NCBI GenBank assembly: GCA_034111025.1
Contig: JAWUYB010000027.1
Span: 1 to 58,100 of the forward strand
Reading direction: 5' to 3'
DNA length: 58,100 nucleotides
Origin: Candidatus Altimarinota bacterium
GTDB lineage: Bacteria > Patescibacteriota > Gracilibacteria > BD1-5 > UBA6164
How positions within the stretch are numbered: position 1 is the first letter of the stretch; each line of letters opens with the position of its first letter. The translations under genes were made by a program, and so were the position numbers. The notes below the pieces were generated by a model. It was not told the DNA's origin. It was given only the letters and a program-made list of their open reading frames with translations, and made no database searches. Shown piece by piece: positions 147-29,155 of this stretch.

Positions 147-1784
147 TTATTTCGAACCTACAACCTCAAAGTTCTCTCAAATAAAGTTTTTTTCTCATCA
201 AATAATTATATGATTTGATAAGACACTAATAGTTCATGTTCATGAATCATCTATAGGGTTAATATAAACTCAATATCAGCTCTGAGTATATGATTCTAGG
301 TGATATGAAAGTGTTGCATTTGAATTATTAGCAAAGAAAATAGCATAATCTTTATTTTGAAAATCAAATACAAATTCATCACCTGTCTTTTCTTTTGCTA
401 CTTCTAATGATCAATCTCACGCGTTCAATTGTATATATCATAAATATTCATCTATGTTTTTACCTTCATATGAATTAAGTGGTAATAATGTAAATTGATT
501 TTTATAAACTTCTCTATCAAATTCTAAAATTTTTATATTATAATCTAAATCTTCTGTATTAAATGTATTTATAAATACATGAGCATTATTAGTATCTCAC
601 ATTTTTACATTTAATATATCATCATTATTCGTATTATTTTCTATTATTTTTATTGTTTTATAATTATTCCAATAAATATGCTGATAAGAAGTATTCGGAT
701 CAACACTACCAAAAATTGTTTTTCTAGGAATTACATCATCATCTTGATAGTTATTTGGAAAATATGTATTTCAAATAGAAGTAACCTTATAATTATCAGA
801 ATTTAAATCGTCATCAATCCCATCATTTCATTCAATTCAGTCTTTTGAAAAACTCATTAATGTATTATCAGTATCAGTAAATACTCTATTTCCTTCCCAT
901 TCTTCATTTCATGCTGATATTGTATTTAATAGATATATTTCAAATTCAGATATATCTAAATATCTTCAATTAACTTCTAAGCGTATACTATCAACATCGT
1001 TAGTTAATCATCTATATTTTAAGTCTATTTCATGATATGTTCTTCATCTCATTCCAGATAAACTTGTATTAAATACTACTGTAGAGCCATTATAGAATTT
1101 AATACTTCAATTATCCCAATAAACCCATCATCAATGACTCGGTTTCCTTATAATGATTTTTCATATACTTTGATTAGATCATACTTCAAATTCAAGGTAT
1201 TCTACTGAGTTTCTGTAGTTACTATCAAACCATGTTGAAGTATTATCATCCACACTGTTAGCTTTAACATAAGAACCCCATGCTGTACTAGAACTGACAT
1301 CTCAATTATTTAGATTGATATGGCTATTCTCAACCGTTATTTCAGTACCGACAGATTCTATTATATTTACTATATCTCCATCATATTGAGCAGTACTAAA
1401 GTCATTAACTTCATCATCATAATGAATTTTAAAATCATCTCAGTTATATGTACCTAAACAATGGACTTTTCAATATTGATACACAAGAGTTGTAGCTATT
1501 CAAGTGATCCTATTAAGAGATCAACTCATGGTAATATCTTGTGGACAAGAAATACCATCTAAAAATCACTCTCAATTCGCATTATATTTAATAACAGATT
1601 CTATGGCTATATGTCATTTATTATATATATTTGAATATACTTCTTCTTGATTATTTCAGACATCAATATTATTTACAATAACATAGGAATTATTATATAC
1701 TACTATTCATACAACCAGAGCTATATTTACAAGCAACATTACATATAATAATATACTTCATTTCTTATTTCTATCTAGAATCAT
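147..1784 (-). CDS. Membrane-anchored PilX-like minor-pilin candidate with discoidin/galactose-binding-like domain (545 aa)
   Basis: With TGA=Gly there is one uninterrupted 546-codon frame from ATG (1782-1784) to TAA (147-149), where the standard-code track shows no ORF at all. The N-terminus MILDRNKKGSILLYVMLLVNIALVVGIVV is a PilX_N-like hydrophobic helix. The central segment ...NSVDDNTSTWFDS..VEYLEFEV..IRLEVNGRYLDISEFEIY resembles the F5/8 type C (discoidin) fold. Confidence 0.6.
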
Positions 1785-1788
1785 TTTT

Positions 1789-2412
1789 TTAAAAAATTAG
1801 ATTTATATTAATAATATCTTCAGGATTTATATTATCCAAGCGTAGATCTTTATTACTATCATTATAGTACAACAGTACATCCAAATCCATATTAATAATT
1901 GTACCAGAATTATAGATACTCATTTGGAAATCTTTCATTTTTAATCCATCGAATAATTTATCTGGGAAAAATTTTAAATCATATACTAAGCTTGGATTAG
2001 AATTAATATTTGTCAGTTCTGTTTCAGATAATTGTCTGTATCCTAAAACTTTATCATAATAGAGTTCATAGTTTAACTGTTTTTCAATAGACATTGTCTC
2101 TTTGTTTACAACTCAAAAAATCACTCATTTTGAGGAATCAATATTTTCCATGAGCATTATATCACTTTGACTCCCTGTTGCTGTGGTAGCAAGTAGATTT
2201 TGATCAATGTACCCTCCTCTTGCGTATTTATTAAAAATATCTTTGAAACTAAAGATGTCTTCGTAAATTTCAGTTTTTTTATTTGAACTTATAACAGTTT
2301 CTATACTATCAGCTACAAATGTTAATACTATAAGCATTACTATTGTAGAAATAGTTATCGAAATAACTAATTCTACCAATGTCAAAGCTTTTTTTGATAT
2401 GAAAGATTTCAC
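1789..2412 (-). CDS. Type IV pilin-like protein (prepilin-type N-terminal helix), 207 aa
   Basis: Track ORFs 2125-2412 and 1789-2094 are in the same frame and are joined through TGA codons (2125-2127 and 2113-2115). The N-terminus is MKSFISKKALTLVELVISITISTIVMLIV. The true stop is TAA at 1789-1791. Confidence 0.7.
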
Positions 2413-2478
2413 TATTAAAAAAAATTAAATATAATATAAAAAATCAATTTTATTATACTAAATTTGAATATTTTGCAA

Positions 2479-3813
2479 ATGAAACCACAAAAGAAGGCAG
2501 AAAGTTTAGCAGCTGTAATTATATCAGTTTTTATTTTATCAATAGCTTTGCTATGAATCATGAATATTGTATCGTTTAGTAAAGACACAGCTATTGATTA
2601 TGAAACAGAGATGTTCAAACATATTATTAAATCAAACTCAGAATCCCTTATAAAAGCATTTGATTATGATAACTTAGAAAATCAGGAGCTTTTTTATATC
2701 TATAAAGATACTGAAAATAAGCAATATAGAATAATGACTGGATCAACGAATAGTTGAAGTAAATATGTTGATAAATTATGAAACCGTATTAATGATTTAG
2801 ACGAAGGGATTTGAAAAACATATAAGCGTGAATTTATTCATAAATCGGATATTCTAAAACATAGAATTGATCCTCCTGAAATTCCAAATATAATTTATAA
2901 TTATGATGCTCAAAATATTGATTTGGACCAAAACTCTACGTTAAATGATGGAGATGCAATAACTATATGGAAAGACTCAGCAAATAATCATGATGCAATA
3001 TGATCTTGAATATGAAACTCTCCTATCTTATATATTAATGAAATTAACTGACACCCTTGAGTAAAATTTGATGGATTAAACGATTTTTTAAGAATTGAAA
3101 AAAATGCAGAAATAAATAATGATGATGTTTGTGATACAAACTTACTATTCAATCAAAAATCATTCACTATGGTTATTAAAACATCAGATGATGTGACAAG
3201 TGAACAAGCAATTTATGAACAATGATGAGTAGCAACAGGATATAATTTTATGATTCGTAACTGAGATTTATATGCTTGAGTTCATAATGTAACTAAAAGT
3301 GGTACAAATTATTCTTGTTATCAAGATAGAACACAAGACCGGGATGACTGGCATAAAGCTAAATCAATTAGTTTAGGAGAAGCCCTCCCAAATACAGTAT
3401 ACTATGTAACTGTAGTACAAGATTCTAATAATTTTGATATTAATGGGAATCCTATAGATAGCTTAAATAAATTACAAATATTTTTAAATTGAGAACTTGT
3501 CATTGAAACAGATCATGTTGATCCTCAGCCAGAACATGATATTTGAGGTTTATGAGCAGTTTATTCAAATAATGTAGAACCTTGGAAAACATGATCGAGT
3601 TATTCTGATGGGAGAGAACATAATGTAATTAACTGTAGTGAATGTAATTATTTTAAATGAACTATTTGAGAATTTATTTCTTGGAATCACGCTTTAACAA
3701 AGGCAGAAGTAAGAGGAATACATAATTATTTATTAGAAAAATGGCTCCATTGAAAACAAAATGTTAATTATTCAATAATTGATATTAATATAAGTAAATA
3801 TAATTCTAACTAA
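2479..3813 (+). CDS. LamG/concanavalin-A-like (Laminin_G_3-type) domain protein with pseudopilin-like N-terminal helix, 444 aa
   Basis: Frame runs from ATG 2479 to TAA 3811-3813 when TGA is read through, and is in frame with track ORF 2560-2757. The N-terminus is MKPQKKAESLAAVIISVFILSIALLG. The LamG_3-like tail is ...VKFDGLNDFLRIEK..FTMVIKTSDD..LQIFLNGELV..FKGTIGEFISWNHALTKAEVRGIHNYL. Confidence 0.6.
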
Positions 3814-3825
3814 TAATAAATCAGA

Positions 3826-4614
3826 ATGAACATAAATAAAAAAGCATTTACATTTGTAGAACTAATAGTTTCTACAGTAATCATTATCGTACTTACTAGT
3901 ATTTGATTTGTTTCATATGTAGATTTTATTTGAGATTCAAGAGATGCTCAAAGAAAATCAGACTTATCTAAAGTATCTTCTTCATTAAAAATTTATAAAC
4001 AAAAAAGAGGTTATTATTCTCCTCCAGGAGATTCTTTCTACATATTAAATCAATGAAAGCAAGTATCTCAACAATGAAAATTGAATAAAAAAGTATTTTT
4101 AAATACACTAGATAAGCTTCCTTCTGATCCAAAATCAGGAACTTATTATTCTTATGCTGTAACAAATAATAAACAAGAATTTCAACTTGCTGCAACACTA
4201 GAAAATTGAGAAACTGAGATACCTTTATTAGAATGAAATTATAAAACTATTTCAAAAAACATACTCCCTACTCTGTTGTTAGCAGTAGACTCTAGTGAAG
4301 ATATAGAAATACATGACTGAGTATGAACATGAACAATCAATAGAAATAAATTTATATTTAATGATGTAGAATATAACTTACCATACACTATTGAAAGTCC
4401 TTATCTTTCATATAATGAATGAACTGATTTTGCTACAAATTTGGCAAAAGCAGAAGATTTAAATAGTTTTTGGCAAAATAATGATTATAGAAATTGTATA
4501 GAAATCCTAGAAGCTGGAAAGTCTATATCTGATAACTGAGTATTAGAAGAATACCAAATACTTTCAGATACTGGAGCATTAACTAATACATGATGTACTT
4601 TCTTAACTCAATAA
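3826..4614 (+). CDS. Type IV pilin / GspG (PulG)-like pseudopilin, 262 aa
   Basis: The N-terminus MNINKKAFTFVELIVSTVIIIVLTSIG is followed by DSRDAQRKSDLSKVSSSLKIYK, which is typical of the GspG/PulG N-terminal region. Frame runs from ATG 3826 to TAA 4612-4614 with many in-frame TGA. Confidence 0.75.
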
Positions 4615-6475: not shown

Positions 6476-7414
6476 ATGGAAAAAACTAAAAAAATAAATC
6501 TTTCTGCGATAATGAAAAAACCGCTTGAAAACGAATTTAATCTCACAAATGAACAGTGAGAACATATTGAAAGCACTACACATCCTACAATTAAAGCTTG
6601 AGTTACGATTAATATCAGTTCTATTAAATCTGATAAAATTGTGGAAGAAGTGATAATAGAGGAAGTTGAAGAAGTTATAAAAGATGAAAAAACTCTTTTT
6701 TATGAATCTCTTACATCTAGAGTCCTTCCTATAAAAAAAAGAAAAATTCAAGAAAAGAAAAAGAAAATAGATTTAAAAAGTACAAAAAAATCAGATAAGA
6801 ATGATGATGAAAAAGAAGATAAAGAAAATAATTGCAAAACGATAATAGATAAAGATTGAGAAGAAAAAGAAGTTTGTGATATTAACCTATGAGTTAATTC
6901 AAAAAAAGTAGATAATGATCTCTTTCTAAATTACCAATCAGATTATAAGAAAAAAGAATCTATAGTAATAGATACAATACATAAATTGAAAAAACTTGCA
7001 GATATAAAAAAACTTACAAAAACGAATAAAGTATTTGTAGTTTCCATTATTATGGTAACAGTTCTATGATTATCATTTCTTTTCTATATTGATCCCGAAA
7101 CACATTCATTAGAAAATTATAAAACAAGTATATTAACTATAGCTTGAAAAGAAGTAACTCAAGACGAATTAAATAATCATCAAATTGAGATAACAAATGA
7201 TATAATTTGGCAATTAAATCAAAATAATTTATGATGATATCAATTAGATTTTGAAATACTAACAAATAATAATTGAGAAGCTATATATAAGTTTGATTGA
7301 ACAGAGTATAATTCTAAAGATTCCCTTGATATTGGTATAAGGGAAAGACTAAAAAAATTAAAAAAATTCAAAATAAAAAATTATTTGAGAACAAAAAAAG
7401 AAATTTCTAACTAA
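6476..7414 (+). CDS. Hypothetical single-pass membrane protein upstream of pilB, 312 aa
   Basis: Frame runs from ATG 6476 to TAA 7412-7414 and is in frame with track ORF 6641-6859. It has a K/E/D-rich N-terminal half, a TM segment VFVVSIIMVTVLGLSFLFYI, and a C-terminal domain of about 100 aa. I recognise no family. A PilN/PilO-like role is only positional speculation. Confidence 0.55.
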
Positions 7415-7530: not shown

Positions 7531-8751
7531 ATGGCAAATAAAGCAGAATTAGATGCATTAAAAATGACTCGAGATGTTTGAGATATCGTTGAGTATGTAT
7601 GAAATACATTTAAAGAGGCTATTGATCAAGAAGCTTCTGATATCCATATTGAGCCAAATGAACATTTTTTAATGATTCGTTTCCGTAAAGATGGTGATTT
7701 TATACTATTTGATAAAATAGATAGAGAAAATATTTCTGCTGTGGTAACGAGACTCAAAGTACTATCAAAGATTAAAATTGATGAAAATAAAAAACCTCAG
7801 GATTGAAAAATTGTATATTATTATGAAAAAGAAGATAAGAATATTGATATCCGTCTCTCTACCCTTCCTACAACTTATGGTGAAAAGGTAGTAATGCGTA
7901 TCTTGAAACAAGATGATAATTTAACTAATATTGAAGCTTTATGACTTATAGATGTGAATCTTGAAAAAGTAAGAGAAGCACTGACGAGTAAATATGGGAT
8001 TATGTTGGTAGCTGGACCTACTGGTTCTGGAAAATCAACTACTTTATTTGGTATTTTAAAGAATTTTAATCCATTAGATTTAAATATATCTACTCTAGAA
8101 GATCCAATCGAGTATGATATTGAATTTGTAAATCAATCACAAGTGCAACCAAGTATTTGATATACATTTTCTTCCGGATTAAGATCATTAGTAAGACAAG
8201 ATCCAGATATTATCATGGTTGGGGAAATAAGAGATAAGGAAACGGCAACACTAGCTGTAGAAGCTGCACTTACTGGTCATTTGGTATTATCAACAATCCA
8301 TACCAATTCAGCAGCAGGTACAGTACAAAGACTTATAAATATGGGTGTAGAACCATTTCTACTTGCATCAGCAATGAAAATGGTAATCTCTCAAAGACTT
8401 TCCAAACGAATATGCCAAAATTGTAAAGAAGTTTTTCCTATTAAAGAAACTCAAATACCAAAACTAAAAGAACATTTATCACCAATATTAGATGAAAAAA
8501 TAGAAAATTTAACATTTTATAAATGAGTTGGTTGTGATAAATGTAAAGGTTCTGGTTATAAATGAAGATTATGAATACATGAAGTATTAATATGTTGAGA
8601 TTATTTAGAACCTTTGATATTAGAAAAAGCTTCTGCTAATTTAATGGCTGAATCAGCTATTAAAGAATGAATGGTTACGATTGTTCAAGATGGTTTATTA
8701 AAAGCACTGTTATGAGAAACAACTGTTGAAGAAGCATTAAAGCTCATTTAA
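7531..8751 (+). CDS. pilB: Type IV pilus assembly ATPase PilB/GspE family (short form), 406 aa
   Basis: Joins track ORFs 7954-8160 and 8215-8526 in one frame through TGA. Motifs: PQDGKI, Walker [41 protein letters not shown] (the TGA falls at the conserved Gly), [13 protein letters not shown], and the Cys cluster CQNC..CDKC. The long N-terminal GSPII_E_N domain is absent. Confidence 0.9.
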
Positions 8752-8775: not shown

Positions 8776-10674
8776 ATGTTTGGTTTTAAAAAGAAAACAC
8801 AAGTGGATGAAACAAAAATTCAAAGTTATAAAGATGCAGTAGAAGCTGTAGAAATCTTTATGCAAATTTATGAGTGGGAAAAATCTAGAAATGCTCTCTT
8901 TGAAATTAAATCAAAAGAAAAATCATCATTAGATGAACTTATTCAGAAAATTGATTCTGAAGATAATATTCAAGCTCAGCAACAAAAAGTAAAGTTAATG
9001 AGTAATTATAAAAATAAAGAAAAACAACTTGCAAAGTTAGAAACTGAATTAGATAGTAAAGAAAAAAAATATAAAAATGCTTCTGAAAAAGAAAAATTTA
9101 AAGTACGTTTTCAGAAGATTAAAAATGAAATTGAAAACCTTATATCAAACAAGAGAGCTATTGATGCAATGGGTTTACTACAAAAATTTCTTGAAGAAAA
9201 TACTGAAAATTCTGTCGTAATTAAATTTTTTAATAAAGAGAAAAAAAATTTACATCAACATATTGAAAAACAAAAAAGTATCGAAGAAAAAAAATTCAAA
9301 GATAATGCAAAAATGCAAGCTATGAAATTAATATGAAATATTGTGAATTTAGAACCTGAAAAAGAAGATAATAAAGAGAAAAAACTTTCATGATTTGCAA
9401 AATTTAAAGCAAAAATGAATTTTTATAAAAGAATAAAAAATAAAGCCAGAAATAAAAAATTATTAGATGAAATTAATATTCTTATAGATGCAAATTCTCA
9501 AGTAAAAAAAGATCTTGCAAAAGAAAAATTAGAAAATATACATAAAGGTTTAATTAAAGAAATATCAAATAAAAATATCATATGATATGACTTATATGGT
9601 AAAATTTTATGAAGTGATAAAATTTCATGAGATACCTTTGGATTTCATGAAGGAACAACAAAATATAATTTTTTCTTATGAGATGCAACTGGTCACGGTA
9701 TTAGAGCTGGTTTTATAGTTACTTTATTGAGTAGATTATTCAATGAACATTTAAGTAAACCAATCGATGAGCTAGCCATGGAAATAAATAATGGTTTAAA
9801 ACAAGATTTAAAAAATAGAAATTTCATTACATGAGTATTTTTTGAAATTTTAAAAAGTAAAGTTGATACATTAAGATTTGTCTGAATGTGACATGAACCT
9901 ATGTTAGTTTATCGTGAAAATACTAAAATAGTAGAATCTATTATACCTGGTTGATTAGCAGGTTGAATAAGACTTATCAAAGAAAAAACAGATGTAAAGA
10001 TTAAAGATATTGAAATGAAATCAAATGATATCATTTTGATCTATAGTGATGGTATTATTGAAAATAAGAATTCTGATTGAGTTTTTTATTGATTAGGAAG
10101 ATTAAAAATTGCTTTTGAAAAAATATTATCAGTAGAACAAGATACTACAAAAATATACGAATATCTTGTTAATGATGTACAATTATTTAAATGATGAAGT
10201 GCTTTTGAGGATGATGCTAGTGTTTTGATTATAAAAAGAGATACTGAAAAAGATATTATTACTGAAAATTCAGATTATATTCAAGATATTACTTTAAAAA
10301 AAGGTCTGAATAAAAAACAAGTAAAAAAGTTTGGATGAAAAACTAAAGATGAGATAGAAGTAGAATTAAAAAAGATAAAGAAAGATAAAGATACAGAAAG
10401 GATCTTAAAAATTTTAGAAAACCTCTATTATACATGAGAGATATTACTATTAAAACAAGAAGCTATTAAATATATTAAACAATGATATATTCATAAAAAA
10501 ATTAATCTCTATCTAAAAAAAGCAATTGATAATGAAACCAAATATAAAGTAGACCAAAAAAATCAAAAAATGAGTAGTAAATATATAGTACTTACAGAGC
10601 TTTATAAAAAATGAGATCACCAAACAGTTATTAATGAAATTGAGGAAATAATTTCACAAGACGGAAATATTTAA
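8776..10674 (+). CDS. Coiled-coil protein with PP2C/SpoIIE-type phosphatase domain, 632 aa
   Basis: Track ORF 8776-9336 (K/E-rich coiled coil) continues through TGA into GDTFGFHE..FFLGDATGHGIRAGFIV..GMGHEPMLVY..ILIYSDGIIEN..FEDDASVLII (SpoIIE/PP2C signature). A further coiled-coil tail follows, and the stop is TAA at 10672-10674. Confidence 0.75.
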
Positions 10675-10686
10675 TAAATACACTCT

Positions 10687-11901
10687 ATGTTTTGAAAAAC
10701 ATTTTATGATAAGTATGGGAATTTTGAAAATGAAAAATTCATCTTACTTCTCGAAAAAACAAAAAAGGCTCAAGAGATGAGTAAATATAAAAAAACAAGC
10801 AATATGAATCAAGATATTGCTCTATTTAATAGTGTGAGTAAAAAAGAATTATGGCAGTTTATTAATAAACTTTCAATTTTTGTAAACTCAGGTATTGATA
10901 TTAAAGGTGCATTATGAATCATGGCTAAGCAAGTAAAAAACCCATTTTTACAAAAAATTGTTTTAGAAATGAAAGACAATATTGATCACGGTATATGAAT
11001 CAGTGAAACTATGACACAATATCCTAAAGTATTTGATACATTAACAGTTGCATTAGTTTCAGTATGAGAAAAAACAGGTCAATTATGAAAAATTTTAGCA
11101 GAACTAGATTTCAATTTACTAGAAAGTATAGAATTAAAAGGAAAAGTAAAAGGTGCAATGATGTATCCTATGATACTTTTGGGTTTAACAATTTGTATGG
11201 TGATATTTATGATGATATTTATTGTACCAAGAATTACTGAAAGTTTTACCAAAGCTGGTGCTGACTTGCCTGCATTAACACAAATGGTGGTTAATGTTTC
11301 TAATTTTTTAGTATGACAATGGTATATACTCATTGCTTATTTTGTATGAACTTATATTTTATTAAAACTTATAAATTCTTCATATTTTTGAAAAATGCTG
11401 TTTGCAAGTTTTTTTATAAAAATGCCAATTTTTTGATATGTAGTAAGGCAATCAAATATAGTATTTTTTATTAAATCCTTTACTATATTATTAGACTCTT
11501 GAGTTTTACTACTAGAATCTCTTAAAACATCGAGTCAAGTAGTATCAAACTTGGCATATAAAAAAGAATTAATTAGAATTAAAAATGAAGTTGAAATTTG
11601 ATTAACAATTTCAAAATCTCTTTGATTAAATCTTGATTATGAAGCAAGTGTCTATATGAATCCTTTCTTTCCTGAAGAATTTGCATATGTTGTAAGTACA
11701 GGTGAGGAAACTTGAACTTTATCAGTATCATTACAAAAAATCTGAGCTAATTATAATGGTGATTTAAAAAGATATATTTGAAATATGTCTAGTATGATGG
11801 AACCAGTTATTATTGTGATAGTTGGTGCTTTAGTAGGAACAATTGTAGTTGCAATTATGATGCCATTCTTCCAAATGGGTGATGTAGCTAAAAATCTATA
11901 A
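10687..11901 (+). CDS. pilC: Type IV pilus platform protein PilC/GspF family, 404 aa
   Basis: Two T2SS-F repeats are present (..LVSVGEKTGQLGKILAELD.. and ..VVSTGEETGTLSVSLQKIGANY..). There are several TM segments, and the C-terminus is EPVIIVIVGALVGTIVVAIMMPFFQMG. The standard-code track shows nothing on this strand. Confidence 0.85.
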
Positions 11902-12143: not shown

Positions 12144-12689
12144 ATGAAAAATACAAATAAAGCATTTACACTAGTGGAACTAATTGTAGTTATCACTATA
12201 CTTGCTGTTCTAGCTACTGTTGCATTTATATCTTTTAGTGGTCAAACACAAGAAGCGAAAAAATCTAAAGTTGTTTCTGATTTAGCTAACTTATCTAAAT
12301 CTATTGAATTAACTGATACAGGGATTAAAAATATTATTTCTGGAGCTTCATCAACTAATGAAGTTACTGGTACTGCAAATGGTGATACTATAGATGCAAC
12401 TACTTATGGTGTTGGTTGAGTTGACTTTACAGTTGTGAATCAAAATCCTTCTGAATTTGTTGATGCTGAGGGTAATGCTTATATGTTTGCATACTTTGCA
12501 TCAGGTTCATTTAATAAATACCAAGTTGTTGGTCAAGTAAAAAACGGTGCTGGTGATAATGTATCATTATTAAAAGGGAGTTACTTCCAAGTTGGTAATA
12601 CTGATGCTCTTGGTCTAGTTTCTGTTAATAGTACTAGTACTACTGGTCTAACTAATGAAGAAGAAATTGGTCAAACTTCAATTTACTAA
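12144..12689 (+). CDS. pilA: Major type IV pilin candidate, 181 aa
   Basis: The prepilin N-terminus is MKNTNKAFTLVELIVVITILAVLATVAFISF. Track ORFs 12144-12419 and 12435-12689 are one frame joined by a single TGA. The gene is monocistronic, sitting between a promoter-like site and a strong terminator. The globular part is G/T/S-rich. Confidence 0.8.
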
Positions 12690-12789: not shown

Positions 12790-13875
12790 TTATCTTTCTA
12801 AACTATCTTTTATAAGCTTAGGATTGTTAGCATACTTTAAACCTTCTTCTAGAGTAATTGTACCCGATTGAATAAGATTAACAATATCTGTTTCAAGTAA
12901 TTGCATTCATTCTCTCATCCCTATTTGGATAACAGATGGTATTTGATGGAGATCATTTTCTCTAATTAAATTAGCTACCGCTTGATTTTTATATAATATT
13001 TCTTTTGCTAATTTTACTCATGTACCATCACTCGTTTTTAATAATCTTTGTGAAAATACTGCCACTAAAGAATCCGCTAATTGAAGTCTTATTTGATTTT
13101 TATCAGCAGCTTCAAAACTATCTAATATTCTTGTAATTGTTTGATAAGCACTACGTGTATGTAGTGTTGAAAAAACTAAATGCCCTGTTTCAGCGAGTCT
13201 AAGAGCCATTTCCATTTCAGATTTTGATCTCATTTCCCCAAATAGTATCACTTGAGGATTTTGTCTCATAGCACCAATTAATGCAGTTTCATAATCTGGA
13301 ATATCTCTCCCTATTTCTTTATGTTCAATAATTGACATTTTATGAGAATGTACATATTCAATTGGATCTTCTATAGTAATAATATGTCTATTATAATTTT
13401 CATTTATATAATCAATCATAGCAGCAAGAGTTGTTGTTTTACCAGATCCAGTTGGCCCAGTAACTAATATAAGTCATTGTCCTAATTTGGTAACATCTTT
13501 GTAAATATCCGTTAAACCTAAATTTTCAGCGTTTGGAATATCAACCGTTAAAAGTCTTAATACAGTCATATAATTTCACATTTGAAAAGATATATTAACT
13601 CTGAATCTTCTTCTTCAAAAGCTAAAAGAAAAATCATAATTTTGATCCCTATTTAGTATTTCTAATTCTTCAAGAGTAATTAATGAATGTGCAAAATCTT
13701 TTGAAGATTCCGAAGTAAATTTTTCTACTCCATCATCTAAACGAACAATATCTCCTCCAATTTTAATCGCTGGGTAAGTTCATACAGTAATATACATATC
13801 ACTCCCTTCATTATCAATCATAACTTGTAATAATTGATCTTTAAAAATATTATCCTCGATTATTAACTTGCTCAT
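12790..13875 (-). CDS. pilT: Twitching-motility (retraction) ATPase PilT family, 361 aa
   Basis: The frame contains track ORF 13018-13419. Motifs: ..RFRVNISFQMG.., Walker [30 protein letters not shown], and GEMRSKSEMEMALRLAETGHLVFSTLHT. ATG is at 13873-13875 and TAA at 12790-12792. Confidence 0.9.
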
Positions 13876-20716: not shown

Positions 20717-21919
20717 ATGAAAGCTTTTTATACGATTTTTCAGTTAATTATCATCTTAGTATTACTTTCTAATATTATGTTATTTTTCTTATTTTGAGAA
20801 GACGTACTTAATGTAGATAAAAAAATTATGTATATGATTCTTGCAAGTATTGTAGTTATAGAATTTTTAGTATTATCACATGCTATTAATAAATTCTTTT
20901 ATCAACCTATTAAAGACCTTGAAACAACTATAAAACGTTTTTATCATGGTGAATATAAAAATAATAATATCCAATTTAAAGAATCTTGGAATCCTAACTT
21001 AAACTTTGTATTAAAGTTTTTCGGGCAAACCCTTAATACCCTAAAAAACATTAAAACCGAGTTCTTACATGGGAAAGAAATCAAGTCTGAAGTAGACTTA
21101 GCTGGTGAAATTCAAGGAAAAATGCTTACAAAGAAATTAACAAAAGTTCCAGACTTAGATATTATTGTTAAATCAAAATCAGCATGAGAAATTTGATGAG
21201 ATTCTTATGATATTATTCAAGTTAATGATAATTATTATATTTATGTATGAGATGCTACATGACATGGTGTTGGTGCTTGATTTATTATGATTATGGTAAA
21301 TGCTCTTATAAGTGGTTTTGCAAAGGTATTCAAAAATGGAAATACAATTTTATCAAAAACAAATGAAATTCTAAAACCAAGAGTAAAGGCTAATTTACTT
21401 ATGAGTTTATTAATGGTCAGATGGGATCAACAAGAAAAAAGAATGTTTATGACATGAGCATGACATGAGTACTTGATGATATATAAACATCAAAAAAATA
21501 AATGTTATAAAATTAAATCTGGTTGAGTTGCCTTAGGTATGGTCAAAGACTGTAGTAAAATTCTGAAAGAACAAGAAATTCAATTTGAACCTAATGATAT
21601 TATAGTTTTATATAGTGATGGTATAACCGAAGCTATTAATAAGTCTCAAAAAGATGGTACTGAAGAAATGTTTTGAGAACAAAGATTAATAAATGCGATT
21701 GAACAGTCTCCTAATATTCCGAATAAAAAATATAAATCTAGTAGATCTATATTTAATAATATTACGATAGAATTATCTCAATTTATGTGATATAAACATG
21801 TACAATTAGATGATGTAACATTAGCTACCATTCATTATAAATGAGTAGATTTCGATATAGCTCATGATTTTGATAGAGAGATAACTGGAGATTTTATAAC
21901 AGAATGGAATTGGAATTAA
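20717..21919 (+). CDS. Membrane-bound PP2C/SpoIIE-type phosphatase (2 TM + linker + phosphatase), 400 aa
   Basis: In frame with track ORF 20828-21187. The phosphatase domain reads GEIGGDSYDII..YVGDATGHGVGAGFIM..MTGAGHEYLMIY..IVLYSDGITEA..LDDVTLATI. This is a paralog of the phosphatase domain in the pilus locus. Confidence 0.75.
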
Positions 21920-21946: not shown

Positions 21947-22051
21947 CTTAGAATTAATAATAATTAAAAGTACAGTGCAAAAACATATATTTTCTTTACA
22001 ATTGGCTAGCTAATATTAAAATAATATAAATTATATTCTAATTAGATACTA

Positions 22052-23914
22052 GTGTCAAACCAAGAAAATTTAAAACATTTAGTGAGCATAAATATCTCTT
22101 GAGATGTTTATACATATATAGACACAAAGAAAAAATTTACTCTAAGTAAAATATCTAAGCAAGAATTAGCACAAGATGACAAACAACTACTAGAAACAGA
22201 AAAGGAATATAAAGAAGCGATGGCATATGTAAAAGATGCTATTTCACCTGCTTATATGAAAATTCTACCAAATAAATTACAAATCAATAATACTTTAGCA
22301 AGAACTTTCTTTGTATATGCATACCCGACATTTTTAGAATGAAATTGGTTATCACCTATTATTAATTGGGACATTAAATACGATATGAGTCTTTTTATAT
22401 ACCCTGTTGAATCAGCAGATATTCAAAAATTTCTAAAAAAGAGATTAACTCAACTTCATTCAGAAAGATCAATTAATGCTGAAAAAGGTTTAATAAATGA
22501 CCCCGCTATTGAAGCTCAAATTCAAGATGTTGAAGAATTAAGGCATAAACTTACTAGATGAGAAGAAAAATATTTTCATTTTTCTTTATATATTACAATA
22601 TATGCAGAAAATGATGATCAATTAAATAAAATTTGAAAAGATATAGAAACTATATTAGCATGAAGAAATGTCCTACAAAAACAAAGTTACTTAAGATCTG
22701 AACAAGGTTTTATTTCTACAGGACCTTTTTGTAAAGATGAACTTTGAGTATACAGAAATATTTCTACAGGTTGATTATCAACAACTTTTCCTTTTTCATC
22801 AAGTACATTAAGTCATGATGATGGTATATTATATGGTATAAATACACATAATAATTCATTAGTATTATATGATAGATTTAAGTCTGAAAATGCAAATATG
22901 ACAGTTTTTGCCAAATCAGGTTCAGGTAAATCATTTGCTGTTAAATTAGAAATACTTAGATCCCTTATGATGGGTATCGATGTAATAGTTATTGATCCTG
23001 AAAATGAATATCAAGCATTAATTAATCAAGTTGGTTGAAGTTATTTAGATGTGAGTCTAAATTCAAATCAAAGAATTAATCCTTTTGACTTACCCCTTCC
23101 TTTAAAAGATCAAAAAGAAAAAGCTTGAGATTTATTAAGATCATGAGTTATTAATTTAATTGGATTAATGAATCTGATGTTATGAAAAATGACACCATTA
23201 GAAGAATCATTAATGGAAAAAGCTCTTATTACTACCTATAGTTTAAAGTGAATAACATTTGAAGATGATAGTATTCTAGGAAAAGAAATTCCAGTGATGA
23301 AGGATCTCCAAGATGTATTAGATACTATGGATTGAGCCACTACACTGGTAATGAGAATTGAAAAATATACTACTTGAATATTCTCATGAATATTCTCTCA
23401 ACAAACAAATATTGATTTAGGTGAATGATTACAAGTCTTCTCTGTTAGAGATTTAGATGATATACTCAGACCTATTGCAATGTATGTTATATTAAATTAC
23501 ATGTGGAATAAGGTAAAGTCTAGTAACAAAAAAAGAATATTAGTTATTGATGAAGCTTGGAATGTAATGCAACATGAAGATTCAGCTAGATTTTTATTCT
23601 GATTAGTAAAAAGAGCAAGAAAATATAATCTTGGTATTACAACTATTACTCAAGATGTGGAAGATTTTATAAGTAGTCCATATGGGAAACCTATTGTGAC
23701 CAATTCTTCTATTCAAATATTATTAAAACAATCTAGTGCATCTATAGATGTTCTACAAAATGTATATAAACTTACAGAACAGGAAAAATATATATTATTA
23801 AATGCTGCTGTTTGACAAGGGTTATTCTTTGCATGAACTGAGCATGTATGAATTCAAGTTGTTGCTTCTTTTTATGAAGAACAAGTTGTTACTACTGATC
23901 CAAATGCAAAATAA
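22052..23914 (+). CDS. VirB4/TrbE/TraC-type (AAA_10) secretion/conjugation ATPase homolog, about 620 aa
   Basis: The frame is open from 22046 to TAA at 23912-23914. Candidate starts are GTG 22052, GTG 22082 and ATG 22220. Walker A is FAKSGSGKSFAVK and Walker B is RILVIDEAWNVM. The N-terminal ..LARTFFVYAYPTFLEGNWLSPII..SLFIYPV.. is typical of VirB4-like proteins. Confidence 0.75.
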
Positions 23915-23925
23915 TTTGAAGAATT

Positions 23926-23953
23926 AAAAAAAATCCCGACAGGGATTTTTTTT
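23926..23953. terminator. Bidirectional terminator between convergent genes
   Basis: Stem aaatccc (23931-37), loop gaca, stem gggattt (23942-48), with an A-run and a T-run. Confidence 0.6.
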
Positions 23954-24707
23954 AATTACATGTTTGCATTTTTTTAGTTGAATATTTATATCAATCAAAC
24001 TCAATTGGTTCAGATTCCCATCTTGATCATCCACTTACCGTGTATGTACAAGTCGATTCTCAACTATAATAAGTATTTGTTAATCAAATTAAACAAGATC
24101 AATTTTTTTCATTATTAGTTGTTCTTTTATTTCAACATCCATATGTATATGAAGAAGAAGATACTGATGACCAAGTTCCTGTAGGTGGAATAGCTATCCA
24201 TGAAGCTGATTTAATTCTCATATTATAATGTTTTGGAGAATTTCATGGTAGAATTAATTTAAATCATGTTTTTGTTACATTTGAATAAGATATTCAAAGA
24301 TCAAAAGTTTCAGATCTAGAATCATTAGATAAATAGAATCCTGCTGCAGATACTACAATTTTAGGAATTCAACTAAATGGTTTTTGAAAAACCACATTTA
24401 CAGTTTTATTACTATTACTCGTATTATATTCCATACCAGCTTGTACTCACTCAGGCGTAATTGATGCAGCTGGTGAAAAACAACTAAATACCCCCCCTTT
24501 ATATGTTAAACTTTCTCACTCTCAACATTCTGGTATATCAGATTTAGATACTTTTAAATCAAATGTATTGTTTAAATCAGTAGCATCTAAAATTTCTCAA
24601 TTTGTAAATGTTGTAGCAGCAATTACTGCTCAAGTTATTAAAACGGATGTTAGAATAACTGAAAAAGTAAGTTTCCCTACTTTTTCAAAAAATTTATTTT
24701 TATCCAT
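23952..24707 (-). CDS. Membrane-anchored H-type lectin domain protein, 251 aa
   Basis: N-terminal TM segment LTFSVILTSVLITGAVIAA. KTVNVVFQKPFSGIPKIVVSAAGFYLSNDSRSETFDLGISYSNVTKTGFKLIL...RIKSASWIAI matches the H_lectin pattern (V.F.kPFs.pP.Vvv...nVT.tGF......sWiAi). The tail is Cys-containing. Confidence 0.6.
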
Positions 24708-24748: not shown

Positions 24749-27700
24749 TTAGTCTTTCGCAAAATATGAAGGACTTGTTGACCATCTATTATCTCTTTCA
24801 ATAATTATAGGGGCTCTGACATGCTCAGTTTTAGCCGTTCTTAATCAACTAGTTCAATACGCTATTCAAGTTAAATCATATATTAGACCTCATGATGATT
24901 TTGAACTCGTTCTTGAACTAGGGAAACTTAAATCTAAACTAGAATCATATGGAACCATACCAGAAACTCAACCAAAATTACTTGCATTGACTAATGTATA
25001 CCTTCTCAAGAAAGATAAATCATATACTTTTTTGGTATCAGCGTTTGTACAATCTTGTTCAATATATGGACATTTTCACGTTTTATCTCAACTAATAGTA
25101 TTGAGAGAAAATACTGAACCATATATATGTAATTGATTTAATAATTGATCTGGAGTTTGGTAATTAGTTATAACACTTCAACTATTATCAGAAGAAACCA
25201 AAGGTCATTGAGATAATAGGAATGCATCAATATTTGTTACTTCTTCATCTATACTCATCCATCATCCTTGTGTTCAAGTGTTTAATAATCTATCCTGAGT
25301 AATTGAACTTGATATATCAACATTAACTAAACCTTTATCAGTAATAGATGCTATTAATATTTGTCAATTAGTAGAATTTGTATTTATATTCGATTTTATA
25401 GTAACTCTTCAATCCATTACAATAAGTGAATTCATTCCTGAAATATCACAAGTAGTTCAACAATCAATGGTTACATTTCATTTATAAAATGCAATTTTTT
25501 CGTTATTTATATTAAAGCTACAATCTGAATGATCACTTGAAGACATATCTAAGTTATCAATATTTCAACTACACCATTTATTTATTTTATTTACAGAGAA
25601 TATTTTCTTCTTAATTCTTTCTAATAATTCTGCTCTTGTATAAGGTCTTTCTAAATCTAGAGAAGCTAATCATACTTGAACATCATTATTTACTAAACCA
25701 TCTATTTTATTAACAAGTCCTGTGATAGCTATATCTTCTGTTAAGAAATCAACTGAACCATTTGCACTAATATTTGGGAAATAAGCACTTGCTTTTGGTT
25801 CTTCTCATACAACATTAGCTACAATTCATCTTGATATAGATGGTATGTAAGTAGTACCATCTCACGCTTGATAACCAATATATGAAACATATCCCCATGT
25901 ATCAAAACTTGCTCATGCTTTTGCTGCATATTTAGCTAAGAATGAATTGTTAATACTATTTCAAGAAAGAGTATTAAATGCATTTTTTAAAACATTATCA
26001 ATATAGAAATCTGCTCTTAGATTAGTATTTATATTATCTGCATCAAAGAATTTATCAGTAACCATATAAGTTCAGATACTAGTACCATTATTTACAATAT
26101 TTTTTGTATGTTGAGTATTTATACCATCTCTAAGAATATTTAAATCAGCAGCATGGTAAATAAACGGAGAGGCAAACTCAAAATTGAAACGTGATCATTG
26201 AGATCCTAATAATGTATCATTATAAAGTCCAGATGTAATTTTTCAATATCTATCTAAATCTGTATCTCTATTTATATCCGCTTCTAAATTAATATTATAA
26301 CGATTATTTTGTTCTTCTCTAATATTAGACTCTATATCAATTATTTTAGTTCAGTTAAAACTTAATAACTCATTTTGGTTAATTGGTAGATGAATTGATG
26401 ATAGATTTGAATGTATAATTTTATTTGTAACACTTGCTAATTCAAGTATCGCTGAATCACTCATATAATCATATCAACCAACGGTTGGTAATTTAGATGA
26501 GATACTAAATTCAAAATCTCAATTAGAATTTGCATTATTTTCTTTTAATACAACATTGTTAAGATTTACATTTCAACTCAGTTCAGTCCCTACTATATCA
26601 ACAGCATTATTATTAGCTCATCAATGTAAGTTATTAGTATGACTTGTGTTTAAACCATTTATAAAATCTAATTCTGTAGAAACATTTCTAATCTGAATTG
26701 CTCCTAAATATGCATTCCTAATCCTGTTAGAATACTTATCTCTTAATGAATAAGAAGTTGTATATTTATCAGGGCTATTTGCAGGATTATTTGCAAAAGC
26801 AGTAGTAGGCATATTAATTTTGATAGTTGAAGTACTGTTATCAATAATATTAGCCATTACTCTAAAGTTTTTGAACACTGTTGTTCAATCTATACAATTT
26901 CAAACAATATCACATATTTGATTCCCTGAAATTCAAGGAGTTTCAAATACTACTCAATAGTTTCTATAATTCCCTGTTTCAATTTCATTAATATCTGTTA
27001 CATCAACATCTGATAAATTAAATGCTGGTGAACTAACACCAGAAGTGTTAGCTGATAATAGAGCAATTTGTTGAACTGCACTATCATTATGTTTTTCAGT
27101 TTTTAATTTTATGTTTGGTGCCATATGATCATTAGCTCACCAGTTATAGTTTATTACTGTAGATTCATTTGCAGAAATCATCTTTGAATTTTTAGATGAA
27201 AGTAATAAATCATCTCAATTTGTAAAGTTTAAAGTGAATAAGCTTGGATCTGGTTTTGATTCATCCCTGTATACATAAAAGGCTTTTTCAGAATAATTTC
27301 ATGCATTATCTGTTAGACGTACATTAATAAATGTCCCATCATTACCTGTTAATTGAGAAGCAACGGTTCGTCATTTACTAAAAACAAATGTTTCTAAATC
27401 TAAGTTTTTTTGATTTGCCATATCTAGAGCTAGATCAATGATTTTTGTTTCTTGATACCCTGTAGTTCCTCATGGAACAGTATTTCATTTATAAAAATCA
27501 ATTTTATCTAGACGAGACACATGATTAATGTGTGATTTTCCACCATAAGTATCAGTCGCTCAATCCAAAGCAACATTTATTACTGGACTTGGACTAGGTG
27601 GTAAACCACCTTGTTTATATCTAATTTGTGATACATCTCATTGATTATATACTTTTTCAGATGCAGTAGAAACATTATCACTATAACTAGACATTAATGG

Positions 27701-29086
27701 ATGTGTTAGTCCAAGATCATCAGATGATACATGATTAATTCATAGAGTTTCTGGTTTCGTTCAAGTATAAACTTCTTCATTTATATACTGCCCTAAACTT
27801 TTTTCCGTAAAAACAAAATCTCAAAATTTAGGAGCAGTTTTATCAACTTTATATATAAATTGTTGTTTAGAAATGTTATGAGCATTATCCATAGCATAAG
27901 TATCAATAGTCAATACTCATTCTCATATTATTTGAAATCCCATTCCATTAGTTATTGTAGATAAGTCATCTACTCAACCATTGATAGGCAGTGTGGCTAT
28001 TGATCATACTTTAGTAAATTTTTTATCAATACATGGTCAACCTGTTATTTCATCTTTATGTGAGCTACACCATGTTAATTTATAATTAGTTTCTGGTGAC
28101 ATTCATGCAAATAATCCATCATCGAAAGCTGTACTAGTAGATCAAGCAGTTGGCCAGTTTCAAACAGCAACAGGAGGTGTATATGTAATTGGTTTTGTTT
28201 CGGAACATGACGCGGTTAAACCTCCATTTGTACCTTTACATTTCCAAGTCCATGCAATAGTTCAACTAACTGAAGATGCACTATCTAAACTTCAAATTGA
28301 ACAATTATAATGAGTAGCACTACAAGAACCATTCTCTGCTACGACTGGTATGGTACGTGAACATGTTTCACTTTGCCCACCATTTAATCCTGAACATTCC
28401 CATTTATATTGAGTAGAACTATCAGGTAAATCTATATAAGATCCGGCTGTACATATCATATTACTTGGATCTATTGAACAAACTCAGGCTACTGCATAAG
28501 CTTCACACTTATTTCAAACTTGGTTATATCATGAATCACAAACGTCTACAACACAACTATCTGTTCATGTATCATAACGATTACATTCTAAATATTGTGT
28601 AGTAGAAAGATTCTTTTTACAAGAATCATATGTTGAAGTACAACTATCTCCATTATTAGGCATTGGATTACAGACAGAAACCCAAAATAGATCTGCTGCT
28701 ACTACTTCTCAAAATTGTTGCCGTGTTTTAGCATAATTTGTTTGAAATTTTCAAGTACCATTAGTTATAGTACAAGTTGGTGTAGTAGGAATAGTATTTG
28801 TACAGTCTGTACTATTGTAAAAAGTTCCTCATTCATAATTACATTCAGTAATATCCATAAAATTGATACAAAGTCATCTATCATAACATGAACCTATATC
28901 AAAATTACATTGAGCATTATGTTCTGGGTAAAAATCACAGCAGGCAACCTGTGAAATGCTTATTATATCATTACCAAATTGATTAGGGTTTCATGTATGA
29001 CATGCCATAAGAGCATTACTCTGATTATTTCAAAAAGAAATATAACAAATAATTAGAATCAGAATGAGAGATAAATATTTTTTCAT
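24749..29086 (-). CDS. Giant secreted Cys-rich surface protein (putative adhesin), 1445 aa
   Basis: A 4338-nt frame runs from ATG (29084-29086) to TAA (24749-24751) with TGA read-through. The longest standard-code ORF inside it is 85 codons (track 26621-26878, in frame). Signal peptide: MKKYLSLILILIICYISF. An EGF-like module CVVDVCDSGYNQVGNKCEA is present, along with two repeats, YKWECSGLNGGQSETCS and WTWKCKGTNGGLTASCS. The C-terminal motif is LHIYGSVFSLNTISGDKTGKCPYIEQDC. Confidence 0.7.
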
Positions 29087-29155
29087 AATATTTGATTAAA
29101 TATAAGTTTAATTTTATTGTAGCAGATTATAGATTAACTAGCAATTAAAGGAGTA

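Follow-up and report, generated by a model that had tools for sequence, protein, structure and literature searches.

A putative minor-pilin complex with two lectin-fold modules encoded in a Gracilibacterium genome

Does a small gene cluster of a Gracilibacterium encode the tip of a type IV pilus that recognizes host or prey cells? This question is raised by the beginning of the 58,100-nt stretch of DNA analyzed here (the window), in which a pilin cluster arranged as A-B/C-D spans positions 147 to 4614. The source organism is marine and uncultivated. A preliminary description had suggested that four adjacent genes of a CPR bacterium begin with pilin-type N-termini, that two of them are fused to discoidin-like and LamG domains, and that their products might form a recognition device. 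Under translation table 11 the region breaks up into short open reading frames (ORFs), while under code 25, in which UGA is read as Gly, it yields four long adjacent ORFs whose limits agree exactly with those first proposed. The use of code 25 is justified because TGA coincides with invariant glycines in PilB (GYKxRLxIHE) and HisRS (SGxRY), and homologues bear the NCBI name Candidatus Gracilibacteria; the organism is indeed a code-25 CPR bacterium. The genes form two close-packed divergent pairs, minus-strand A-B and plus-strand C-D, with intergenic gaps of 4 nt (B to A) and 12 nt (C to D), as listed below (arrows mark predicted cleavage sites).

147-1784, minus strand: gene A, code-25 ORF, 545 aa, N-terminus MILDRNKKG↓SILLYVMLLVNIALVVG
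1789-2412, minus strand: gene B, code-25 ORF, 207 aa, GTG start, KKA↓LTLVELVI, 4 nt upstream of A
2413-2478, no strand: B/C spacer, 66 bp, AT-rich, between divergent start codons
2479-3813, plus strand: gene C, code-25 ORF, 444 aa, KKA↓ESLAAVIISVFIL
3826-4614, plus strand: gene D, code-25 ORF, 262 aa, KKA↓FTFVELIV

The B/C spacer is presumed to be a shared control region. It has one sigma-70-like match in each direction, but we only infer such a role because these matches are no more common than in shuffled sequence (53 found versus 54 expected).

All four proteins open with a short basic leader, a Gly or Ala at position -1, and approximately 21 hydrophobic residues. The -1 residue follows a Lys-rich leader and is Gly or Ala in 31/31 A-family and 23/23 C-family N-termini, counts in which a W standing for UGA-encoded Gly was scored as Gly; the -1 Gly of gene A is itself encoded by TGA, and leaders ending in Gly or Ala are also seen in orthologues of B and D. 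A regular expression for pilin N-termini, applied to the 58-kb window in six-frame translation, matched only A, B, D, and a candidate major pilin at 12144. Since this search placed pilin-type N-termini elsewhere in the window only at 12144, the occurrence of four adjacent genes of this kind is not due to chance. The Glu5 residue is present in B (LTLVE) and D (FTFVE) and absent from A and C, with Tyr or His at +5 in the 31 A-family N-termini and Ala, Gly, or Ser at this position in the 23 C-family N-termini. In the C family, the +1 residue is invariantly Glu or Asp, window C reading KKA↓ESLAAV, and we know of no characterized pilin with an acidic residue at this position. Against the Pfam N_methyl model, B passes narrowly (21.4 bits; gathering score, 21.2) and D stays under the gathering score (17.5 bits), while A and C match neither this model nor TIGR02532 and fall below every pilin HMM threshold. 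In AlphaFold2 models, a long helix (residues 2 to 68 in the A orthologue P0045 and 5 to 60 in the C orthologue P0016) is followed by β-strands. The N-termini are predicted to be of the pilin type rather than ordinary signal anchors, although A and C are still non-canonical in lacking Glu5.

Based on these features, B is predicted to be a canonical small minor pilin (KKA↓LTLVELVI, Glu5), and its orthologues retain [A/G]↓[L/M]T[L/F]xEL. D is likewise predicted to be a canonical GspG-like type IV pilin, in keeping with its initial assignment: it matches GspG model TIGR01710 at 1.3e-8, position 7 of the D-family profile aligns with the first residue of mature PDB pilins, and two invariant Cys residues, C224 and C257, lie near the C-terminus. 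D is the most conserved of the four proteins, with 97% identity to its orthologue in L006 and a dN/dS of 0.05.

A, which reads KKG↓SILLY with Tyr at +5, is predicted to be a large minor pilin of non-canonical type, in which a pilin-like module at the N-terminus is followed by a lectin insert and then by a conserved β-rich domain at the C-terminus. It has 35 homologues, and every one with a named source is from Gracilibacteria. The description of A as PilX-like found no HMM support, as neither T2SSK nor PilX_N (the GspK and PilX families) was matched in Pfam at E values up to 1; only the size of the protein and its lack of Glu5 speak for this label. For both A and C, the modeled structures are those of orthologues 43 to 45% identical to the window proteins, not of the window proteins themselves. 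The model of the A orthologue P0045 (mean pLDDT, 81; moderate confidence) comprises the helix at residues 2 to 68, a sheet at 84 to 159, the lectin domain at 167 to 296, and the C-terminal domain at 314 to 564. The inserted domain of window A is located as follows.

915-1346, minus strand: galactose-binding-domain-like (discoidin/F-type lectin/CBM32) module of A, residues ~147 to 290, inserted cassette

The A-family profile matches PDB sequences of the lectinolysin lectin domain (4gwi and 3le0; E, 8e-7) across residues 7 to 149 of 153 and also matches the Streptococcus pneumoniae fucolectin-related protein (2j22 and 2j1r) and chitosan-binding discoidin domains. Foldseek matches of the insert in the orthologue model had TMt values of 0.83 to 0.85 and rmsd values of 2.3 to 2.5 Å overall, with 3le0 at 0.85 and 2.3 Å, and profile and structure agree on an eight-stranded β-sandwich across the whole domain. 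The discoidin-like fold suggested for A is thus borne out. The Pfam resemblance of window A to F5_F8_type_C is real and sub-threshold (E, 0.007; 16.9 bits; gathering score, 28.2); within the family, four members match F5_F8_type_C and three match F5_F8_type_C_2, with a best value of 1.7e-5. F-type lectins bind fucose through a His...Arg-x-Asp...Arg motif. The profile alignment to lectinolysin shows no conservation of this motif in the A family, where the consensus has Lys/Ser/Tyr at lectinolysin's Arg-Gly-Asp...Arg positions, and the protein-binding APC10/Doc1 subunits score level with lectins in the Foldseek comparison of the insert. The insert is missing from the short homologues P0058 to P0061 and duplicated in P0053, and it thus appears to behave as a cassette.

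C is a probable modular pilin with a non-canonical signal peptide. In the model of its orthologue P0016, which is 43% identical to window C and has a mean pLDDT of 73 (moderate confidence), the helix at residues 5 to 60 is followed by pilin-like strands at 71 to 125 and a β-sandwich at 137 to 470. The corresponding module of window C is as follows.

2872-3750, plus strand: ConA-like/LamG-type β-sandwich of C, residues ~132 to 424

Among the best Foldseek matches of P0016 is PilC of Streptococcus sanguinis (7oa8, E of 1.1e-8; 7oa7, E of 5.2e-8), along with clostridial neurotoxin binding (Hc) fragments, trans-sialidase chains, and CBM40. A jelly-roll β-sandwich is therefore assigned to this orthologue at E values of 1e-8 to 1e-6 and a probability of 1.0, and the LamG fold proposed for C is upheld by these matches. 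The neurotoxin Hc region matched by C is not itself known to be the sugar-binding part. Here, too, the Pfam call on the motif first quoted is genuine and remains below threshold: window C matches Laminin_G_3 (PF13385) at an E of 0.038 and 14.6 bits (gathering score, 27.6), and no member of set A1 matches this model at E values up to 0.01. The best orthologue, P0064, covers the full model at 1.2e-5 and 26.0 bits, and a Laminin_G_3 match is on record for the positional orthologue of C in L004. More than 10,000 proteins contain the LamG-like module, which is very common in non-pilin secreted proteins and giant surface proteins.

Genes for a pilus motor lie close by, with PilB, PilC, a pilin, and PilT encoded within 10 kb of the pilin cluster.

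6476-7414, plus strand: conserved single-pass membrane protein, 312 aa, just upstream of pilB
7531-8751, plus strand: PilB-type extension ATPase, Walker A GPTGSGKS, GYKGRxGIHE; T2SSE Pfam match on orthologues
8776-10674, plus strand: SpoIIE/PP2C-type phosphatase between pilB and pilC; Pfam SpoIIE, 1.1e-29
10687-11901, plus strand: PilC platform protein, code-25 ORF; T2SSF Pfam match on orthologues
12144-12689, plus strand: candidate major pilin, canonical, 181 aa, NKA↓FTLVELIV; Pfam N_methyl, 4.6e-8
12790-13875, minus strand: PilT-type retraction ATPase, code-25 ORF, Walker A; T2SSE match on the L001 orthologue, same position

The 312-aa membrane protein matched no Pfam family; its position is conserved in L001, L002, L003, and L007, and it is possibly an assembly-platform component. 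Synteny of the cluster with the neighboring PilB-SpoIIE-PilC-pilin-PilT genes extends to Gracilibacteria genomes with just 42 to 47% identity, so that the expected co-occurrence with pilB-pilC is seen in distant relatives. The divergent A-B and C-D pairs followed by pilB-SpoIIE-pilC are retained in L001, L003, L006, and L007 at 42 to 91% identity, with the phosphatase gene at the same position in L001, L003, and L007. The linkage to pilB is conserved in L001 to L003, L006, and L007, L002 ending after pilB. In L001 and L003, a pilin gene and a pilT-type gene come after pilC, the T2SSE gene of L003 being on the same strand as pilC. L004 and L005 have the four-gene unit, not adjoining pilB.

The modules of A and C diverge far more than their surroundings. 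When L006, the closest relative, serves as the reference, dN is 0.29 and dN/dS is 0.28 in the LamG module of C, versus 0.01 to 0.06 and 0.04 to 0.15, respectively, for B, D, HisRS, PilB, and the conserved membrane protein. Its hypervariable segments lie at residues ~151 to 240, 271 to 300, and 361 to 390. The module shares 57% identity with L006 (HisRS, 94%) yet 81% with L007 (HisRS, 84%), a pattern that shows segment exchange at odds with the genome backbone. In A, every comparison places the greatest divergence in the lectin insert, which is 49% identical to that of L007, compared with 84% for its flanks. By these measures, the lectin modules are the fastest-evolving parts of the locus. As the lectin-type modules of A and C vary fast between strains, these two pilins probably make up the sticky tip with which the pilus grips a host cell.

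Taken together, we consider it probable that the cluster encodes a minor-pilin complex at the pilus tip, whose two lectin-fold modules would serve to recognize host or prey cells, and every part of the preliminary interpretation that could be checked computationally was supported. Because proteins and lipids, too, are ligands of LamG and discoidin folds, "lectin" is used here as the name of a fold and not of a demonstrated activity. A to D would be minor pilins of the adjacent type IV pilus, with its PilB, PilC, 181-aa major pilin, and PilT. Each protein would insert into the membrane via its class-III-type N-terminus and would probably be cut after the conserved Gly or Ala by a prepilin peptidase whose gene would lie in another part of the genome. 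The four would then come together on the PilC platform as a priming complex and finally occupy the tip of the pilus, as do GspHIJK, FimU-PilVWX, and S. sanguinis PilABC. The Glu5-less A and C would be at or near the apex, displaying the discoidin/F-type-lectin-like and ConA/LamG-like modules, respectively, and the canonical pilins B and D would link them to the shaft. The lectin-fold modules would bind structures on the surface of a host or prey cell, most likely glycans. PilT-driven retraction would then draw this putatively epibiotic organism and its partner together, and rapid module divergence and segment exchange would retune specificity between strains.

Three other readings of the locus need to be weighed. 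A and C might be uncleaved, membrane-anchored surface lectins that lie beside two true pilin genes and mediate adhesion directly at the cell surface. The lack of Glu5, the scores under all pilin HMM thresholds, and the wide occurrence of LamG-like modules in non-pilin surface proteins would fit this, as would the finding that no prepilin peptidase (PilD) gene or motif was found in the 58-kb window. Such lectins would not be expected to have Gly or Ala at exactly -1 after a Lys-rich leader in 54/54 sequences, a predicted helix of 55 to 65 residues followed by a pilin-like sheet in the orthologue models, and tight coupling to canonical pilins in a conserved four-gene unit. In addition, Glu5 is missing from GspK and S. 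sanguinis PilA as well, both of which are tip pilins (PMC9934059), and the modeled structure of the C orthologue matches the pilin PilC; we regard this reading as distinctly unlikely. The same proteins could also be the minor-pilin set of a competence- or pseudopilus-type filament for the uptake of DNA or another substrate, with modules that serve assembly or bind the cell's own envelope. D resembles the pseudopilin GspG, and four minor pilins of which at least one lacks Glu5 are the pattern of ComGD-GG and GspHIJK, too (see also PMC9934059); moreover, type IV pili of CPR bacteria have been widely proposed to function in DNA uptake (PMC11452946). However, modules that diverge severalfold faster than the rest of the locus and swap segments between lineages are easier to reconcile with recognition of a variable ligand outside the cell than with a housekeeping function, and a PilT retraction ATPase is linked, which makes this explanation unlikely. 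Uptake of DNA or substrate and host recognition are mutually compatible functions.

The domain calls themselves might be overinterpreted, with both modules being generic β-sandwiches that are structural or bind protein and have no carbohydrate ligand. The sub-threshold Pfam matches of both window proteins, the absence of the F-type lectin sugar-binding motif from the A family, the equally high scores of APC10/Doc1, and the match to a neurotoxin Hc region not known to bind sugar all point this way. Nevertheless, the nearest profile and structure matches are carbohydrate-binding modules (lectinolysin, CBM32, CBM40, and PilC), and the fold assignments are significant (E of about 1e-8). We hold this view to be very unlikely, and it would change the ligand alone, leaving the architecture and the adhesive logic in place.

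[quoted passage not shown] If this is true, the LamG/discoidin allelic type found in metagenomes could be used to forecast which hosts these uncultivated bacteria have.

The idea of a lectin pilin is not new; it is established in S. sanguinis, and lectin-like minor pilins have been reported in Saccharibacteria. Raynaud et al. (2021, PMC8179133) defined modular pilins as a pilin module joined to a fold that is not pilus specific, and by structure and profile both A (discoidin-like) and C (ConA-like) are of this kind. In their InterPro survey, pilins with Laminin_G_3 (IPR012902 plus PF13385) were among the more common modular architectures and were frequent in CPR phyla (PMC8179133). C shares this domain logic and would escape such a survey, since its N-terminus and its LamG module both lie under the Pfam/InterPro thresholds, in part because most public copies are translated with Trp in place of UGA-encoded Gly. 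A resembles the "K" pilins GspK and PilX in being the largest of a four-gene set, in lacking Glu5, and in having its extra domain inserted rather than appended, and the apical-cap role of these pilins is predicted for A. The domain inserted in GspK is an α-domain (PMC8179133), whereas that of A is an all-β lectin fold that is followed by a conserved domain of ~250 residues, and the A-to-D set has two subunits without Glu5 compared to one in GspK/PilX-type sets.

Two more of the closest known systems are found in other bacteria. The S. sanguinis PilABC tip complex includes the lectin pilin PilC (PDB 7OA7/7OA8; PMC9934059 and PMC8179133), for which glycan binding has been shown and a role as a pilus cap binding host glycans has been proposed (PMC9934059). 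[quoted passage not shown] At the sequence level, no similarity between C and PilC was detectable; PilC combines a canonical, Glu5-containing signal peptide with an Ig-like linker module, whereas C has Glu or Asp at +1 and no Glu5, the second modular pilin has a vWA module (PilB) rather than the discoidin-like insert of A, and glycan binding by C is, at present, inferred. In the saccharibacterium Nanosynbacter lyticus TM7x, a CPR episymbiont, the two largest minor pilins, PilX1 and PilX2, are lectin-like and are needed for host binding, with PilX1 being a β-jelly-roll and PilX2 a fucose-lectin-like propeller that has a non-canonical signal peptide and is required for efficient host binding (PMC11623550). 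TM7x is from another phylum and translates its genes with the standard code instead of code 25, its lectin-like domains are C-terminal whereas that of A is internal, and its β-propeller differs from the discoidin insert of A. In both CPR bacteria, however, lectin-like accessory domains are carried on the largest of the known or predicted minor pilins, and the functional model is the same.

The four adjacent genes that the preliminary description placed at 147-4614 were recovered as code-25 open reading frames (ORFs) with exactly these limits. They form two tightly packed pairs, A-B and C-D, with gaps of 4 and 12 nt, respectively, which diverge from a 66-bp AT-rich spacer:

147-1784, minus strand: A, 545 aa
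1789-2412, minus strand: B, 207 aa, GTG start
2479-3813, plus strand: C, 444 aa
3826-4614, plus strand: D, 262 aa

A six-frame search of the 58 kb with a regular expression for pilin N-termini matched only A, B, D and a 181-aa pilin at 12144, and the clustering is therefore not due to chance. An origin of the genes by ORF-calling artefact or chance was also rejected, given their conservation and synteny. A promoter and terminator scan gave nothing better than shuffled sequence, and metatranscriptome runs from one study whose samples contain this DNA yielded only spurious matches of 35 to 40 nt to the locus, which speak neither for nor against its expression.

The genetic code used here is table 25 (UGA = Gly). 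Translation of 147-4614 with table 11 produced only short ORFs and fragments, and once TGA is read as sense, the six-frame ORFs of 100 aa or more add up to 1.33 times the window length instead of 0.32 times. Under code 4, the ORFs do not change, but Trp falls on TGA-encoded invariant glycines of conserved proteins, such as those in the GYK-x-RL-x-IHE motif of PilB and the SSG-x-RY motif of HisRS, and this code was therefore rejected. No UGA-reading tRNA-Gly(UCA) was found within the window. A tRNA cluster at 51098-51466 (plus strand) comprises tRNA-Thr(TGT), tRNA-Tyr(GTA) and tRNA-Leu(TAG). The G+C content is ~26%, the named homologues belong to Candidatus Gracilibacteria, and the locus is present in seawater and marine metagenomes. 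In most public copies (among the homologues P0001-P0061), UGA is rendered as Trp and not Gly; the window's own C is found in the database as P0001 with an "identity" of 95% and Trp for UGA. This wrong-code translation is an annotation trap that probably hides the domains of these proteins: it makes domain searches less sensitive, distorts alignments and probably explains the undetected domains and "hypothetical protein" labels of the public copies.

As first noticed from the sequence, all four proteins have a pilin-type N-terminus. It comprises a short Lys-rich leader, Gly/Ala and then ~21 hydrophobic residues. B (KKA↓LTLVELVI) scores above the threshold for Pfam N_methyl, and the GspG-like character ascribed to D (KKA↓FTFVELIV) was borne out by a match to TIGR01710 (GspG; 1.3e-8). 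Position 7 (Phe) in a profile of six D orthologues aligned to residue 1 of many mature PDB pilins, and a B-family profile gave only weak N-terminal pilin matches among PDB sequences. The pattern [A/G]↓[L/M/F][T/S][L/F]xEL is retained in the B and D orthologues of five further genomes. The signal peptides of A and C are noncanonical, and an NCBIfam search returned no match for either protein. All 31 A-family sequences have Ala, Gly or a Trp standing for a UGA-encoded Gly at -1 (a TGA-encoded Gly in the A protein of the window), and this family has Ser, Asn or Thr at +1 and Tyr or His at +5. All 23 C-family sequences have Ala or Gly at -1, and +5 in this family is Ala, Gly or Ser; Glu5 is absent, and +1 is invariably Glu or Asp (family alignment A1; 2497-2502 in the window, codons 7 and 8 of C). 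We know of no characterised pilin with an acidic +1 residue that lacks Glu5, and this residue might replace Glu5 in charge neutralisation. AlphaFold2 models of an A orthologue (P0045; pLDDT 81) and a C orthologue (P0016; pLDDT 73), which are 43 to 45% identical to the window proteins, have an N-terminal helix of 55 to 65 residues followed by a beta-sheet, and this predicted arrangement ahead of the extra domains corresponds to the pilin "lollipop." No prepilin peptidase (PilD) motif was found within the 58-kb window; A to D are presumably processed by such an enzyme.

The segment of A that had been likened to an F5/8 type C fold stayed below the Pfam threshold as a single sequence (F5_F8_type_C; E 0.007), and the fold itself was recovered with profile and Foldseek searches. 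A profile of 36 A-family members matched the lectin domain of lectinolysin (Sm-hPAF; 4gwi/3le0) over its full length (E 8e-7) and, at positions 150-288, also an S. pneumoniae fucolectin-related protein and chitosan-binding discoidin domains. The A-family model superposed on 3le0 with a TM score of 0.85 and an rmsd of 2.3 Å, as well as on CBM32 and APC10 domains. The His/Arg motif for fucose binding by F-type lectins is not kept in the A family, as judged from the alignment to lectinolysin. This lectin insert is an internal cassette, absent from the homologues P0058-P0061 (384 to 405 aa) and present twice in P0053 (696 aa). Conservation is high in its flanks, which are an N-terminal region with invariant C80 and C109 and a C-terminal stretch of ~250 residues. 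Residues 320-355 of A (~720-830, minus strand) contain the invariant Asp-rich motifs IDDDLNSDNY and QDDDVxPR(K), located in a low-confidence loop of the model that connects the lectin insert with the C-terminal domain; we speculatively take them to be reminiscent of Ca2+-binding loops such as the one in PilY1. Foldseek searches, including viral structures, gave no structural match for the C-terminal domain, and with the A model, the viral structures returned the discoidin domain again and nothing else.

A similar outcome was obtained for the Laminin_G_3-like tail proposed for C, for which the single-sequence Pfam match around the GTIGEFISWNHALT motif was weak (E 0.038) and the fold was found by Foldseek. 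The C orthologue model matched S. sanguinis PilC (7oa8, E 1.1e-8; 7oa7, E 5.2e-8; probability 1.0) and also clostridial neurotoxin binding (Hc) fragments, trans-sialidase chains and CBM40, all with a probability of 1.0. A C-family profile found nothing among PDB sequences, and Pfam searches of all C-family members gave no LamG match at E up to 0.01. The correctly translated C orthologue P0064 matched the whole Laminin_G_3 model (1.2e-5), and such a match is on record for the positional orthologue of C in the Gracilibacteria locus L004. In an exhaustive profile search, the module (profile positions ~130-417) was found in >10,000 representative proteins, many of which are giant and contain multiple copies of it. 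The matches P0063-P0208 include giant proteins of up to ~6,500 aa, often with many copies, and secreted proteins of ~540 aa. Eight non-pilin proteins sharing the module had no Pfam match (E up to 0.001). Several C-module proteins are Trp rich, which suggests that they, too, use code 25 and were translated incorrectly.

The cluster is linked to pilus motor genes, and the genes downstream of D also include the following:

between D and the membrane protein, opposite strand: HisRS
6476-7414, plus strand: 312-aa single-pass membrane protein with a Lys/Glu-rich N-terminal half, one TM helix and a small C-terminal domain
8776-10674, plus strand: SpoIIE/PP2C phosphatase
20717-21919, plus strand: second SpoIIE/PP2C phosphatase

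Past the 312-aa protein, the order is PilB, SpoIIE-type phosphatase, PilC, the 181-aa canonical pilin and PilT. The linkage to pilB-pilC was also found in relatives, with A to D followed by pilB-SpoIIE-pilC in L001 (GCA_028698305.1), L003, L006 and L007, even though A to D are only 42 to 91% identical in these genomes. L002 is truncated after pilB; L004 and L005 keep the four-gene unit, but it does not adjoin pilB. The 312-aa protein is always directly upstream of pilB in relatives and has no family match; it may be a PilN/PilO-like platform protein. The phosphatase at 8776-10674 keeps its place between pilB and pilC in L001, L003 and L007, and the pilus motor may thus be regulated by phosphorylation.

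The modules evolve faster than their surroundings. Compared with the nearest relative, L006, amino acid identity is 94% for HisRS, 97% for PilB, 93% for B, 97% for D and 91% for A; C is 67% identical overall, with 88% in the pilin module and 57% in the LamG module. The LamG module has a dN of 0.29 and a dN/dS of 0.28, versus 0.01 to 0.06 and 0.04 to 0.15 in neighbouring genes. This divergence is a mosaic, with residues 151-240, 271-300 and 361-390 at 23 to 47% identity and conserved core strands between them at 80 to 87%. L007 is less closely related (HisRS, 84%), yet its LamG module shares 81% identity with that of C. Module type and genome backbone are thus in conflict, an indication of variable-segment exchange or an old polymorphism. 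In all comparisons, the lectin insert had the lowest conservation within A (for example, 49% identity versus 84% in the flanks for L007). In one seawater metagenome (run X4), a co-occurring strain had 55 differences and 3 indels within the insert (871-1366) and 0 to 4 differences in its other pieces (low-coverage data). This strain is the only firm point from the metagenome contigs over the locus, which are shallow and fragmented, and zero-depth bins were not counted as evidence.

A third modular pilin of 500 aa (36591-38093, minus strand), far from the pil locus, has a canonical REG↓FTLVELIV (Pfam N_methyl, 1.8e-8), and its Cys- and Gly-rich C-terminal ~350 aa gave no Pfam match. A 251-aa membrane-anchored protein (23952-24707, minus strand) with an H-type lectin domain (Pfam, 1.6e-9) adjoins Cys-rich secreted proteins of 1448 aa (24749-29095) and 700 aa (29475-31616), and these three are candidates for further adhesins. 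A VirB4/TraG-type P-loop ATPase (22046-23914, plus strand; TraG P-loop, 1.1e-27; CagE_TrbE_VirB, 1e-3) is a predicted type IV secretion or conjugation component, and such components have been described for Patescibacteria.

While the genes, motifs, folds, synteny and rates were observed directly, we infer cleavage, ligands and lifestyle, and also that A and C would be located at or near the pilus apex, with two lectin-fold modules facing a host or prey surface, that PilT retraction would pull the cells together, and that specificity could be tuned through the fast evolution of the modules. A and C could also be plain membrane-anchored lectins, a reading that fits poorly with the invariance of position -1 and with the organisation of the operon. 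It is conceivable that the filament is mainly a DNA-uptake pilus, which is consistent with the data but accounts less well for the hypervariable modules. Binding of non-glycan ligands by the modules would alter the presumed ligand alone.

According to PMC11452946, no Gracilibacteria have been cultivated yet. The locus provides testable candidates for the means by which they recognise and attach to a host. The two modules, predicted to be surface exposed, are expressible alone and could be screened against glycans or candidate host cells, and their fast, mosaic variation could be tracked in marine metagenomes. The two protein families, A and C, are unannotated; unusual are the internal discoidin cassette in a K-like pilin, the two Glu5-less subunits and the invariant acidic +1 in C. 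The kind of system is already established, CPR bacteria included. The anatomy of A to D fits the minor-pilin priming/tip complex of GspHIJK and FimU-PilVWX, and S. sanguinis PilABC is a closer fit: there, the fibre is capped by two modular pilins plus a subunit lacking Glu5, and a ConA-like module enables PilC to bind glycans (PMC9934059). Modular pilins occur widely; fusions of a pilin to PF13385 rank among their more frequent architectures, with numerous examples from CPR bacteria (PMC8179133). N. lyticus, a CPR bacterium, is reported to have lectin-like minor pilins; its PilX2 carries a noncanonical signal peptide and is required for efficient binding to the host (PMC11623550). Because of these precedents, we read A to D as the minor-pilin set of the adjoining type IV pilus. 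Along with the findings in S. sanguinis and Saccharibacteria, the locus supports the idea of lectin-tipped pili as a general attachment device of single-membrane and CPR bacteria.
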